This document shows positions 17,773-58,460 of a DNA stretch of 64,000 nt, piece after piece. The notes beneath the pieces were generated by a model. It was given only the letters and a program-made list of their open reading frames with translations, did not search any database and was not told the origin of the DNA. A program made the position numbers and the translations under genes. Every line of letters begins with the position of its first letter. Within the stretch, counting starts at the first letter, position 1. The stretch is from assembly GCF_013315695.1 (NCBI RefSeq), contig NZ_CP054353.1. One strand, 5' to 3'. This DNA is from Escherichia coli (GTDB lineage: Bacteria > Pseudomonadota > Gammaproteobacteria > Enterobacterales > Enterobacteriaceae).

Positions 17773-17985
17773 TTAGAGCGTAACAACGTTCGCTGCCGCG
17801 GGACCACGTTGCCCCTGCTCAATAGAAAATTCAACTTTCTGATTTTCGTTCAGCGTGCGGAATTCATTGCTCTGGATGGCGGTGAAATGGACGAAAACGT
17901 CTTTGCTGCCATCATCAGGAGTGATAAAGCCAAAACCTTTATCTGCGTTAAACCATTTTACTAAACCAGTCATTTTATTAGACAT
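17773..17985 (-). CDS. cspG: Cold-shock protein CspG
   Basis: 70-aa [26 protein letters not shown]... with cold-shock domain RNP motifs. Confidence 0.93.
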
Positions 17986-18270
17986 ATTTTACTTCCTTCA
18001 TTTTGGGCCTTTCGGCAAACAGGGCTTTAATACAGAAACTACTTAGTGTTCAGGAGAGAGACTCAAAAGAAGGGGATAATGCCTGATAATGAGAACTGCT
18101 TTAGTAAACTACTTTGTATGCTGTCTGTCTTTCAAACCGACGCAGCTATTAACGCATGATAATTGAGATTAAGCAAATTTTATTTTAGCCGTCCGGCGGT
18201 CTTAAATATCGCTGGCTTTATTTTATTAACCCCGTATAGTGCAGCGCAGTATTTTCAGTAAGGAATTTGT

Positions 18271-18483
18271 TTGTCCCGTAAAATGACAGGAATTGTCAAA
18301 ACCTTTGATCGCAAAAGCGGCAAAGGATTCATTATCCCCTCCGACGGTCGTAAAGAAGTCCAGGTCCATATTTCCGCATTCACTCCCCGCGACGCAGAAG
18401 TGCTTATACCAGGATTACGCGTGGAATTTTGCCGCGTAAATGGCCTGCGAGGACCAACAGCGGCAAATGTTTATTTGTCTTGA
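18271..18483 (+). CDS. cspH: CspA-family protein CspH
   Basis: 70-aa [29 protein letters not shown]..., TTG start; divergent from cspG. Confidence 0.9.
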
Positions 18484-19781
18484 TGGAGAGCGCACGCTGG
18501 TATGCGTGCTTCATTCACGATTTGCGTAAAACCTGCCAACGAACACATGCCCTGCGCATTTCGCTCTTCACATCCTGCCAGGGTCAGTTTCACCTCTCCG
18601 GGCGGCGTATTTAATGACAGCGGCGTTTTATCACGCATCTGCTGTAAAGTCTGGAAGACCAGCGAAACCTGAATCCAATGGCTGTTATCGCTTAGCCTAC
18701 GCCAGCGTTCAAACACCAGTTCCCCCCCTGGCGGTGTGTTATCCGGCTGACCTGGAAGCGTCCAGTTGAGCTCCAGTGCGCCGCCGAGATTTGCCAGATT
18801 AGTATCGTGTCCGGCGATAAACAGCACTGAAGTGGGTAATGTCACACCATACACCTGTTTTTGCAGTGGATGGGGCGTCAACGCTGTCATGATCAAATCC
18901 AACAACGGGGTGGCGCGGCTGCGGGCAACCTCTGGCGTGCGTTGTAGCAAATAAAACTGCGCGTTATGCAGGCTTAGCAAGGTGTTCCACTGGTGTGAAT
19001 CGGTGATCCTTCCCCACCCCGGCTCCGGCATTCCCTGTGCTTGTTGCAGGAGAAATATCTCCGTAAGCATTGACGCTAGGCTTACCGCACCGGTTAATGA
19101 GACATTGTCGGCGCTCACCTTGAGTTCCGATGGTAATGCCTGCGTTAATGAACAGCTTTCGTCCTGTTTCTCACGGTTAAGGCACAAGTTTGATTGCGGA
19201 AAATTAAGCACCCGTTCCAGTTCGCGAAACGCCGTTTGCCGATGCCCGGTAAAGTCAGCAATTGACCCTCCTGCCCTGCTGAGGATCGCGTCAGTCACGT
19301 TCGCATTATCCAGTTGGCAAACGCCAGTTTTTAGAGGATTAAATAACGGATCGGGACTGGACGTATCTGCCTGGGTATGTACGGTTATTGCACAGTCAGG
19401 TGCCAGCCCGGCGGCGAAGGCTTCGCCTGTTTTACGGGTACGCTCGTCGACATCAGCAATAATCGCGACCTGACCAGGCTGCGGGCAGCCCTTTTTCGCC
19501 AGCAATCCGTCAGCCACCAGACGCTGGCGTTGGTAATGTCCAAGATAAGCGATTAGCTCACCACCGCGCGGTGTCAGCCAACCCAGTTTTACCGGCCAGG
19601 TTGGCCATGCGTCTGGGGTGACATCCTGCATCAGTTGCGTGGCCTTGGTTGGAGCACGCACACCATGACGACTGACAATCACCACACTTTCCAGCTTCAG
19701 CTCCGGCTCACTCTGAGCGAATGCAGATTGCGGGGTGAACGGAATCAGAAGAGATAAGAATGGGATTAAGATCGCTTTCAT
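18471..19781 (-). CDS. appA: Periplasmic phytase / acid phosphatase AppA with a variant C-terminus
   Basis: Start at [22 protein letters not shown] signal peptide; RHGVRAP active-site motif; ends ...[13 protein letters not shown]; 3' end overlaps cspH by 13 bp. Confidence 0.93.
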
Positions 19782-19860
19782 CGATATGTTTCCGCTTTTC
19801 ATATCTGACATTATTGATTGCCTGATGCGATGCTAATGCGCCACATCAGGCTTACGTTCG

Positions 19861-19953
19861 TTAACTTTTCAGACGCGGGTCCAGCCATACCAACACAAGG
19901 GTGGAGAGCGAACACATCAACAAAATGCCGACGAACCAAAGTAAATACCACAT
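19861..19953 (-). CDS. appX: Cytochrome bd-II accessory small membrane protein (30 aa, below cutoff)
   Basis: Reverse-strand translation MWYLLWFVGILLMCSLSTLVLVWLDPRLKS between appB and appA. Confidence 0.75.
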   Translation of the reverse strand: MWYLLWFVGILLMCSLSTLVLVWLDPRLKS

Positions 19954-19965
19954 TGTTCCTGCTCC

Positions 19966-21102
19966 TTAGTACAGCTCGTTTTCGTTACGGCGGAGAGTTT
20001 CTGTCGTCATGCGTCCCCACATTTTGTAGTAGCTCCAGAGAGTGTAGAGCAACACAATAGGCAAAAATATCAGCACGATTACCAACATAATGCTCAGCGT
20101 CAGCTGGCTGGAAGTGCTGTCCCACAACGTCAGGCTGGAGATTGGACTCACGCTTGACGGCATGACAAAGGGGAACAGCGTGATGCCTGCCGTGAAAATC
20201 ACGCCAAATTGCATCAATGATGCCATCAAAAATCCCCAACCCGGGCGACCACGATAAATCGCCATCACCGTCAGCAATGGGCAGAAGAACCCCAGCAGCG
20301 GGAAGATCCACAAAACGGGCGATTCGACAAAATTATTCATCCAGGCACCAGGTAGCACTGCCACCAGTTTCATTAACGGATTGGAAGGACCGTTAGCATC
20401 CTGGGCGAGCAGTACAAAGCCATCAATACCGACCCACAGCCAGTAACCCGCCAGCAAAAAGCACAGCATCACCAACAGTGCAGCCCGTTTAGTCGCCAGC
20501 TGTGAACGCAGATGAATCACACCAACAGTTTTCAGTTGTAACCAGACGCCACCTTGCAAAATCACCATCCCAAGACTGAGCAATCCACACAATAAAGGGA
20601 ATGGCGTCAGCAGTTGCCAGAAGCTGCCGAGATATTCCACGCGTAATTGCGGTGTGAAGGCAAACGGCACACCGAGCAGCAAGTTGCCGAATGCAATACC
20701 GAAGACTACCGGCGGCACCAGACTGCCGATGACCAGTCCGGCATCCCACATTTTACGCCAGCGTGCATCGGCAATTTTTCCGCGATAATCAAAGGCCAGC
20801 GGGCGGAAGAACAGCGAGCACAGCACCAGAATCATCGCCACATAAAAGCCGGAAAACGCCGCTGCATACACTCTGGGCCAGGCGGCAAATAATGCCCCAC
20901 CTGCGAGGATCAACCAGACCTGATTGCCTTCCCAGTGCGCGCCAACGCTGTTTATCACTATCCGACGTTCATCATCATTACGCGCCACCAGCGGCAGCAG
21001 ACAGCCGATCCCCATGTCAAATCCGTCGGAGACCATAAAGACCACCAGGATCACGCCAATCAGCAGCCACCAGATGAAGCGCAATGTTTCATAATCAAAC
21101 AT
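19966..21102 (-). CDS. appB: Cytochrome bd-II ubiquinol oxidase subunit II
   Basis: 378-aa polytopic membrane [23 protein letters not shown]... Confidence 0.95.
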
Positions 21103-21113
21103 GATTTTCTCCT

Positions 21114-22658
21114 TTACCCCTGTTGCTGCGTCGGTTGTTCACTCTGCATCGCGCTCGGCCCCAGACGGGCATATTTCTGCATCAGGTAGACTTCGGCGAT
21201 TAAGAACAGGGTGTAAAGCCCTACGATCATGATCAGTGAGAAAGCCAGTTGTCCTGTGGTTAAGGCGGAGTGTGCGGAGTATGTCGGTAAGATATCCTGT
21301 ATCGCCCACGGCTGACGACCAAACTCGGTCATAAACCACCCGGCTTCAATCGCAATCCACGGCAGCGGCAAACTCCAGAGCGCCATTTTCAGCACCCAGC
21401 GATGCTGGTCGATTTTGCAACGCAGCGTCTGGACAAGCGCAATCAGCATCACCAGTAACAGCAGAGAACCACAGCCCACCATGATGCGGAAACTCCAGAA
21501 TACCGGCGCAACCTGAGGTATCGCGCCACGCATCGCCGCCTGGTACTGTGCGGCTGTGACATGATTCATATCCGGCGCATAGCGGGAGAGCAACATGCCG
21601 TAACCCAGGTCGCCTTCCAGCTCCCGGAATGCCTGCAACACATGCGGCTCACGATTGCCTTGCGATATTTCCTGCATTAACAGCCAGGCCATACGTCCGC
21701 GTTGCAAGCGTGGGTAGGTTTCAGCCATCAAATTCTTCAGACCCGGCACGGGTTTATCTAATGAGTGAGTGGCGAGGATCCCTAGCAGCGCGGGAATTTT
21801 GATGGCAAAGGCGTTACGCTCTTGATCCTGTTCCGGCCAGGCAACCACATGGAACGGTGCAGGTGCAGGTTCTGTTTGCCACTCCCCTTCCATCGCCGCC
21901 AGTTTTACCGGTTGTACTTGCGCGACTTCATACGCAGAACTGTCTCCGAGTTGCAGCGTACCGATAATCGCCAGAGTACCGAAGACGGAACCGATGGCAA
22001 ACGAGCGTAATGCGACATCGCGCTCCCGTCCGCGCAGTAAATACCAGGCGCTGATCGCCATAATAAACATGGCCCCGGTCACGCATCCCGCCATTACGGT
22101 GTGCACAAATTTCACCTGGCTGACCGGGTTAAAGACCAACTCGCTGAAACTGGTCATCTCCATACGCAGGGTGTCGATATCAAAATGCGCACCGGTCGGG
22201 TATTGCATCCAACCGTTGGCATTCAATATCCACAATGCAGAGAGATTTGAACCGAACGCCACCAGCCACGTCACCAGCAGGTGCTGGTATTTATTCAGCC
22301 GTTGCCAGCCGAAGAAGAACAGCCCGACAAAGGTGGATTCGAGGAAGAAGGCCATTAATGCTTCCATTGCCAGCGGTGCGCCAAAAATATCGCCCACATA
22401 GTTGGAATAGAATGACCAATTAGTACCAAACTGAAACTCCATGGTCAGGCCGGTAGCCACGCCAAGAGCAAAGTTGATACCGAAGAGCTTACCCCAGAAG
22501 CGCGTCATATCGCGGTAGATTGTTTTGCCGGTGACCACGTAAATGGTTTCCATGATAGCCAGCAAAGAAATCAGCCCCAGGGTAAGGGGTACAAATAAAA
22601 AGTGATACAGCGCGGTCAGAGCAAACTGCCAGCGCGATAAATCAATGACATCCCACAT
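21114..22658 (-). CDS. appC: Cytochrome bd-II ubiquinol oxidase subunit I
   Basis: Starts [31 protein letters not shown]-track start is 2 codons upstream. Confidence 0.95.
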
Positions 22659-57389: not shown

Positions 57390-58460
57390 TCAGTCAAAGT
57401 TTATTCTCACCGTTGCTGTGGCTTCAAAGCTCCCGGTTTCCGGTGGTACACCTGTCGTGCTGACCGGATAAACATTCATTCGAGCGAAGCTGTCCGCGTC
57501 GTCAGGGATGGATAGCGGCAGTGTGCCACCGGCAGGCGAAATAATGTTGTTTTGGCTGTCGGTGACCACAACACCGACACCTGGTCGTGATGTCTTGATT
57601 GCCTGAGGATAATCGGGATCACTGGTTGCCGTCAGACTCAAATTAACATTAACCAGCTCTGCGTTTCCGGTATTACACCTGACTGGAATTGAGAGTTCTG
57701 CCGTTCTGGATCCAAGCGGTTTATGCCCTACAACACGGAAATTGGCAGCAAATACATCCCCCAAATCAACCTCTATTGTCTCTCCAGAATTGACAGAACA
57801 TGAGCCAAGTGAATTAATCGTACCAGACAGGTAATACACTAAAACCGGTGTACCTGTAGTCGTGCAGGAATCACTTGCGGGTATGTTGTAACACTCATAT
57901 AGTCGCGCCAGCGCCATAGGAGGAATGACGACCGAACCGACAAACGGCTGCAATATTTTCAGTGAAAAACTTCCGCTATTGCCGCTTGCCCCCTTGCCGC
58001 CCAAACGTTGACCACCGGGATCGCAAATATGCCATCGGGTATCACTTCCTGTACCGAGATTTTCAAAAGGTACGGCCGAAGGTGTGTTACCTTTCACTCC
58101 TAATAGCACCTTTGCGGCAAGATAATCGTTAATTTTGTACCAGTTGTCGCCCAAATAAACTAACGGAGAATCCGCAGCGAATGCCCATAGACCACTTCTG
58201 ACATTGTCTTTATCGCAATCGCAGGAAACATAATAATCATTCGATTCACTCCACTGATAAAATTCATCTTTGACTTTTCCAGCCGTATTCTCTTCCTCCT
58301 CCAGGGTTTTAACGCCAAAATTGACGCCAATATACGGATTCCCCTGAGTGGTATGACACTGCCCGGTATAAGCGGCGGCATGAAATCCCCACAGCATTAA
58401 AACAGCAGTCAAAAGAAGCCGGAGTCTTAACACACTACTATCCCCTGAAATTATTCGCAT
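57390..58460 (-). CDS. elfG: Fimbrial adhesin-like protein
   Basis: 356-aa ORF with signal peptide, downstream of the usher. Confidence 0.85.

Follow-up and report, generated by a model that had tools for sequence, protein, structure and literature searches.

Background

A well-described counterpart of the arrangement analysed here is that of E. coli K-12. In strain MG1655, appA is followed by etk, etp, gfcE, gfcD, gfcC, gfcB, gfcA, IS1D and cspH, in this order (b0980-b0989). In S. sonnei, the gfc cluster is also located between cspH and appA (PMC4368438). The gfcABCDE-etp-etk genes have been treated as a variable virulence-associated cluster and listed as variably present (PMC8477403, PMC6678207), and a 500-genome survey singled out their presence, among B2 strains, in an STc28-related group with a T3SS (PMC8715443). 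The passages searched in these four papers deal with presence or absence of the cluster only, and describe neither the junction between cspH and appA nor an extended AppA nor the sharing of either among species.

In this study, we analysed a 64,000-nucleotide stretch of an E. coli chromosome (contig NZ_CP054353.1; hereafter, the window) in which cspH and appA are immediate neighbors. An initial annotation of the window, made from its letters alone, had drawn attention to this junction. We compared it with K-12, with complete E. coli genomes, with other Escherichia species and with more distant loci. These data show that the junction is an old and very common allele, present in about a third of complete E. 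coli genomes, and suggest that it probably did not arise by loss of the capsule genes.

Results and discussion

The cspH-appA junction of the window

The genes cspH and appA converge, and their 3' ends share 13 nucleotides (Table 1), as the initial annotation had described and as both the sequence and the list of open reading frames confirm. On the minus strand, the shared nucleotides are read as the appA codons K-D-Q and the stop; on the plus strand, they are read as (Y)-L-S and the stop of cspH, such that the last cspH codons, TTG TCT TGA, are also read by appA from the opposite strand. Both open reading frames are intact and conserved and can be read directly, so the overlap is not a chance artefact. 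The same arrangement is annotated in RefSeq for E. coli MS 21-1, which is 100% identical to the window over positions 18200-18800; its appA (WP_001571230.1, 1311 nt) overlaps its cspH (WP_000087763.1).

Table 1. Features at and around the junction, in window coordinates
Feature	Position	Strand	Description	Basis
cspG	17773..17985	-	divergent from cspH; left-hand context	
cspH	18271..18483	+	70-aa CspA-family cold-shock-like protein, intact	ORF; TGA stop 18481-18483
cspH/appA overlap	18471..18483	both	convergent coding overlap, 13 bp	direct reading
TGGAGAGC	18484..18491		8 junction-specific bases directly past the cspH stop; within the AppA tail, they specify Leu-Ala and part of His	
6-bp hairpin	18492..18509	+	GCACGC-TGGTAT-GCGTGC; inside the appA 3' coding sequence	
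appA	18471..19781	-	periplasmic acid phosphatase/phytase, 436 aa	TAA stop 18471-18473; RefSeq start 19781
appX/cbdX, appB, appC	19861..22658	-	cytochrome bd-II	RefSeq annotation of the corresponding region in MS 21-1; ORFs

The surroundings of the junction are conserved. Upstream of appA, and in the same operon, are appX/cbdX, appB and appC, and the left-hand context is cspG-ymcF-ymcE-gnsA-yccM-torS; elsewhere, the window consists of ordinary core chromosome and extends from rutG to ssuA. Several additional observations were made in these regions. An in-frame ATG upstream of the appA start (19782-19811, minus strand) opens a longer reading frame from 19811 that would give a 446-aa AppA, and this start is used by some database entries (P0127), while RefSeq and K-12 take the downstream one. 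A second histidine acid phosphatase gene (2630-3862, minus strand), whose product is 32% identical to AppA, is the expected agp (glucose-1-phosphatase) and no duplicate of appA. The fimbrial usher gene elfC (58451-61051, minus strand) is an intact 866-aa open reading frame, whereas RefSeq marks it as frameshifted in the best named match, MS 21-1; the window strain is therefore distinct from MS 21-1. The appCB genes of the window occur with 100% identity in the human isolates OZ547117, OZ546925 and OZ546911.

Absence of the capsule cassette

The initial annotation had placed etk, etp, gfcE-gfcA and an IS1 between appA and cspH of K-12, over 9-10 kb, and this proved correct: the alignment that it proposed for placing the breakpoint gave 9,093 bp between shared anchors in MG1655 and 45 bp in the window, an excess of 9,048 bp in K-12. 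The block is indeed absent from the window. K-12 Etk, Etp and GfcA-E had no tblastn match anywhere in the 64 kb; the junction leaves no room for gfcA, gfcB, gfcC, gfcD or gfcE (the Wza-like exporter), and neither the tyrosine kinase Etk nor the phosphatase Etp was found. This locus therefore lacks the machinery dedicated to exporting the O-antigen (group 4) capsule, and the strain cannot export such a capsule through it.

The genome-wide search for etk that had also been suggested was answered directly for the window, which contains none, and indirectly for the remainder of the genome. A chimeric query (appCB of the window joined to etk) had two matching places in the near-identical genome of MS 21-1, against a median of three over all genomes; since the second place occurs in every genome listed, this is an indirect test, and its outcome is consistent with there being no etk elsewhere in MS 21-1.

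The eight bases TGGAGAGC can neither be built from, nor aligned to, either K-12 flank, and divergence between the window and K-12 is not raised in the flanks around the junction. We considered whether the three synonymous differences at the end of cspH (TTG TCT TGA against CTC TCT TAA in K-12) mark a foreign donor and rejected this; these differences are instead fixed between allele classes, as all overlap alleles have TTR...TGA and all cassette alleles CTY...TAA at this place. IS1 is a peculiarity of K-12 and lies outside the polymorphism, as it is absent from the other cassette alleles that were fetched (DCE7, G12 and E2348/69).

AppA and CspH proteins

CspH is identical to its K-12 orthologue over all 70 residues (100% amino acid identity, tblastn), and PF00313 is recorded on the orthologue of E. 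albertii. AppA is 98% identical to K-12 AppA over 432 aa, with the catalytic motifs RHGVRAP and GHDTN (the RHGxRxP and HD motifs) present in the alignment. A phmmer search against PDB matched it to the E. coli AppA structures 1DKL and 7Z1J over residues 23-432 (E ~1e-275), and PF00328 (histidine acid phosphatase) is recorded for the cluster of 436-aa AppA proteins (P0121, 7,419 member sequences).

The altered C-terminus that the initial annotation pointed out is real. K-12 AppA has 432 aa and ends IPACSL, with the last two residues directly after the last cysteine; the window protein lacks this ending and has Ser431Ala and four extra residues, HQDK, which give the tail ALHQDK. The four residues reach past every solved chain in the PDB alignment. 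The last cysteine forms the C-terminal disulfide, so that the protein should tolerate a short extension past this residue. That thousands of genomes and several species have kept the tail also argues that it is probably harmless.

Transcription at the junction

No terminator-like site was found between cspH and appA in the window. The junction region folds no better than its shuffles (z = -0.03), and the one local structure present downstream of cspH, the hairpin listed in Table 1, does not make a convincing terminator; in K-12, a strong hairpin terminator lies between appA and etk (z = -4.67). Because a terminator-like element is lacking between the two genes, convergent read-through appears plausible, and it would hold for an ancestral pair separated by a short spacer as well. 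The transcriptional interference between cspH and appA that had been suggested is a conjecture.

Occurrence of the junction among E. coli genomes

The position of the cspH stop inside appA and the altered AppA end had been taken as the signature of a deletion that gave a capsule-operon-negative lineage; a lineage-specific deletion relative to K-12 was not borne out. A 601-bp query spanning the junction matched 1,675 of the 5,426 complete E. coli genomes at full coverage and 98.0-100% identity. The K-12 gfc-etk block was present in 3,742 of the same genomes, at least 80% of it in 3,697 and less than 80% in the other 45. Together, the two counts make 5,417 of 5,426, i.e., the two sets are almost complementary, which is further indirect evidence on the lack of etk and etp elsewhere in genomes with the junction. 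In UTI89 (phylogroup B2), CE10 (F) and AVS0969, every base of the junction is identical, as are the overlap and the ALHQDK tail.

What speaks for a recent deletion private to this strain or its lineage, starting from a K-12-like ancestor, is the two-genome comparison with K-12 and nothing further. Such an event is refuted by the frequency of the junction, which extends over several phylogroups including B2 and F, and by the homologous overlap in four other species (see below); the lack of IS1 in the other cassette alleles also speaks against it, and we give this explanation virtually no credence. A methodological lesson follows: when K-12 is the sole reference, an allele that is old and common resembles a private deletion.

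The cassette allele does undergo recent deletions. We found two independent events, in GPEC617 (L003) and 23CRST009 (H120), in which only 426 nt and 251 nt, respectively, of the 3' end of etk are left, and the 45 genomes with partial blocks belong here as well; such deletions keep K-12-type scars and a 432-aa AppA.

Both alleles in other Escherichia species

When one genome per species was scanned, appA turned up in four Escherichia lineages other than E. coli: SCPM-O-B-8794, E. whittamii, E69 and E1V33. In each of them, appA overlaps cspH by the same 13 bp and encodes a 436-aa protein, the cassette is missing, and the nucleotide sequence of appA is 82-89% identical to that of K-12. One more locus of the E69 overlap type was returned by the second of our metagenome scans.

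The K-12 arrangement is also found outside E. coli. In E. albertii (CP043271) and in a further Escherichia locus (L018), the cassette occupies exactly the same site with the same junctions: cspH ends CTY TCT TAA, RTGCA stands between the etk terminator and the appA stop, and AppA has 432 aa and ends CSL-stop. The cassette genes of these two loci are 81-94% identical to those of K-12, which makes them about as diverged as appB, appA and cspH; therefore, the cassette has been in place since approximately the species split. Within E. coli, the cassette of the B2 strain E2348/69 is 96-99% identical to that of K-12, a typical distance between phylogroups. In the same strain, a lambdoid prophage with nleB2, nleC and nleD lies between torS and torT and adjoins the conserved yccM-cspH segment, with torS annotated as frameshifted (L029/L030).

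An AppA of 436 aa that ends SLYQDK and overlaps cspH (P0129, locus L019) is nearly identical to the 432-aa protein encoded next to the cassette in L018 (P0130), which makes a second species polymorphic too. Judging from these alignments, the cassette-present and the cassette-absent allele both predate E. coli. The flanking genes cluster by species and not by junction allele. Between E. whittamii (L005) and E1V33 (L007), appB is 96.6% and appA 86.3% identical, and the appA of E. whittamii is closest to that of E69 (L006; 92.8%). This pattern implies that recombination has occurred within the locus, with a breakpoint between appB and appA, and that species have exchanged junction alleles. A 317-bp contig with 99% identity to E. 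coli appA (L008), from an assembly of Nocardioides antri, is almost certainly contamination.

The cassette in other genera

Complete gfcABCDE-etp-etk sets were found at three different chromosomal sites in C. freundii (L011), E. hormaechei (L012/L013) and P. vulneris (L014): beside dcuSR/dsbD, between ligB and yicG, and beside GGDEF/EAL genes. In all three, homology of the cassette stops at the etk stop codon, and neither a transposase nor an integrase was found near the cassette at these loci. In L011 and L014, etk is followed by a PF00953 (WecA-like) glycosyltransferase gene. A cassette that entered the spacer between cspH and appA as a separate, old insertion would fit these varied sites.

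The closest Etk homologues of non-E. coli type, 87% (P0005) and 82% (P0007) identical to K-12 Etk, were examined as possible outgroup orthologues and set aside, as their island and IS contexts are uninformative. Of their island-like loci, L009 and L010, one contains YagK/YfjJ-type genes, and the other lies beside IS91/IS66 transposases and a C39-peptidase ABC exporter; some E. coli-like genomes thus have a second set of the wza-wzb-wzc type, which is mobile.

Outgroup loci and the ancestral junction

Distant AppA homologues have the K-12 length and a K-12-like end: P0137 (79% identical) ends PACSL-stop, and P0140 (78%) and the Kosakonia protein (61%) end PACGL-stop. Cassette-free loci with a non-overlapping, convergent cspH downstream of appA are known from only two cases, both in short assemblies and with AppA proteins 78-79% identical. 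In L020/L021, the spacer is 12 nt (ATGAAGAGAGCG) and AppA ends CGL-stop; in L022, it is 8 nt (AGAGTGCA) and AppA ends CSL-stop. A metagenome pattern scan for further junctions of this spacer type gave 0 matches. The position of these loci was rooted by percent identity alone: the appB gene of L020 is 85.8% identical to that of K-12, against 87.7% for E. albertii, and the appA genes of L020 and L022 are 74-77% identical, against 82% for E. albertii. Because L020 and L022 are thus more diverged than E. albertii, we take the tail-to-tail, cassette-free, non-overlapping pair as ancestral. On this rooting, the AppA tail is derived, together with the overlap, via loss of the appA stop codon.

The opposite polarity, in which the overlap is ancestral for the genus and a single insertion of the cassette into it shortened AppA to an SL-stop end, could draw on the presence of the overlap in four non-coli species and on the location of the cassette at different loci in other genera. 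It would have to accommodate two outgroup loci with cspH adjacent and no overlap, as well as distant AppA homologues that end C(S/G)L-stop at the K-12 length, so that the insertion must have restored the ancestral C-terminus exactly; we consider it improbable. Its simplest form, an ancestral overlap with a plain insertion in K-12, was dropped, given those protein ends and the cassette at the same site in E. albertii and L018.

A 12-bp microdeletion as the proposed origin of the window junction

The overlap alleles fall into two subtypes. In E. whittamii, E69, L019 and L025, the junction reads TGA-TR-TAARCT, i.e., two bases and then true Ser-Leu codons; in the window, UTI89, CE10, SCPM-O-B-8794 and E1V33, it reads TGA-TR-GAGAGN-GCA. 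On balance, we favor an origin of the window allele by a microdeletion of 12 bp, in a lineage that had always been free of the cassette. The ancestor would have had cspH and appA tail to tail, with a spacer of ~11 nt and an AppA ending PACSL-stop. In one branch, the seven-gene cassette gfcABCDE-etp-etk, with its own terminator, would have been inserted into the spacer, giving the arrangement of K-12 and E. albertii. In another branch, on a cassette-free chromosome, 12 nt would have been lost between TGCA direct repeats (TGCA-TTA-CAAAC-TGCA), and with them the appA stop and the original Ser-Leu codons. The old spacer would now encode Ala/Thr/Ser-Leu, and translation would run on for four codons (H-Q-D-K), along the strand opposite the cspH end, until it meets an in-frame TAA, creating the 13-bp overlap. 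Both alleles would have coexisted since then in E. coli and its sister species, swapped by homologous recombination.

The direct repeat is contained in L022 and in all cassette alleles. The bases TGGAGAGA of E1V33 match the L020 spacer TGAAGAGA at 7 of 8 positions (p ~0.01), and those of the window and SCPM-O-B-8794 match the outgroup spacer at 6 of 8 (p ~0.05-0.1); TGGAGAGC would thus be a relic of the ancestral cspH-appA intergenic spacer. A reconstructed 11-nt spacer, TGGAGAGTGCA, from which the 12 nt between the TGCA repeats are removed, gives TGATGGAGAGTGCATGCCGG, which agrees with SCPM-O-B-8794 and E1V33 at 19 of 20 positions each and with the window at 17 of 20. This resemblance of the window-type bases to the spacer supports the 12-bp deletion, with statistics that are only suggestive: the matching stretch is short and purine-rich, and the window itself reaches 6 of 8. 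The few, short outgroup assemblies and their rooting by percent identity weigh on the model as well. In addition, the cassette is present in E. albertii, which is the most divergent of the named species compared here, and simple parsimony would therefore allow a cassette-bearing ancestor of the named Escherichia species.

The second overlap subtype is a further difficulty for the 12-bp model. It has the same geometry and looks like cassette flanks joined at a TA microhomology; compared with TA plus the Ser-Leu codons, its members match at 7 (L019), 6 (E69) and 5 (E. whittamii) of 8 positions. If this subtype arose by excision of the cassette, the same 13-bp overlap needs two independent origins.

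The competing explanation is an ancient excision of ~8.3 kb, from just past the cspH stop into the appA stop codon, in the ancestor of all overlap alleles, with the GAGAGC of the window arising later by substitutions in the Ser-Leu codons. The identical geometry of both subtypes would most simply reflect such a single origin, and the cassette is found at the same site in E. albertii, L018 and E. coli with proportionate divergence. The flanks in K-12 and L018 share a 2-nt TA microhomology (TAA-TA-TG... and ...GCAY-TA-YAAACT), and joining them there gives TAA-TA-YAAACT. The junction of L019, a locus of the same species as L018, is almost exactly this sequence, and since the flanks of L018 and L019 match exactly, excision explains the TAARCT subtype very well. 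The window type fits this scheme less well: its TR-GAGAGN and the Ser-Leu codons YAAACT disagree at 3-4 of 6 positions, also between taxa with 96.6% identity in appB, and its likeness to the outgroup spacers would be a coincidence. The cspH ends also separate overlap from cassette alleles without exception, and present-day deletions of the cassette look different. We regard the ancient excision as a serious possibility, though a doubtful one.

With the 12-bp microdeletion as the preferred reading, the initial proposal of a deletion with one endpoint inside the 3' end of appA stands in part. The altered AppA end does come from a deletion that removed the stop codon, as shown by the C(S/G)L-stop ends of distant AppA homologues encoded beside cspH; this event is ancient and widespread, and it probably involved 12 bp and not a 9-kb capsule block. 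The evolutionary point is a minor one: both alleles predate E. coli, and the phytase tail and the overlap probably stem from a 12-bp slip and not from operon loss.

A broader scheme can be sketched, in which the junction is a long-lived trans-species structural polymorphism with at least four states (spacer, cassette and two overlap types). Balancing selection on production of the O-antigen capsule (phage or immune pressure against cost) would maintain it, with exchange of alleles between species, and the gfc cassette would be mobile and target terminator-less tail-to-tail gaps. Taken as a whole, this scheme is speculative and we think it rather unlikely.

Comparison with known alleles

The window shares with K-12 MG1655 both sides of the locus, hya and appCBXA on one side and cspH, cspG, ymcF, ymcE, gnsA, yccM and torS on the other, with flanks that are 97-100% identical. 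K-12 alone has the 7.7-kb cassette, its regulatory region, the hairpin terminator and IS1D, and its cspH and appA are ~9 kb apart, whereas those of the window overlap. GPEC617 and 23CRST009 are, like the window, without a working gfc operon; unlike it, they keep K-12-type flanks or scars on both sides, a 432-aa AppA and the etk remnant, and are clearly secondary deletions.

The closest counterparts are the RefSeq alleles of UTI89, CE10, MS 21-1, AVS0969 and ~1,670 others, in which the junction is identical and only scattered SNPs occur in the flanks. The allele is thus already known, as it is annotated in RefSeq and the variable presence of the cluster is published, and it is nothing new in kind. 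Like a large share of E. coli, the strain studied here has no group 4 capsule export operon and makes a 436-aa AppA.
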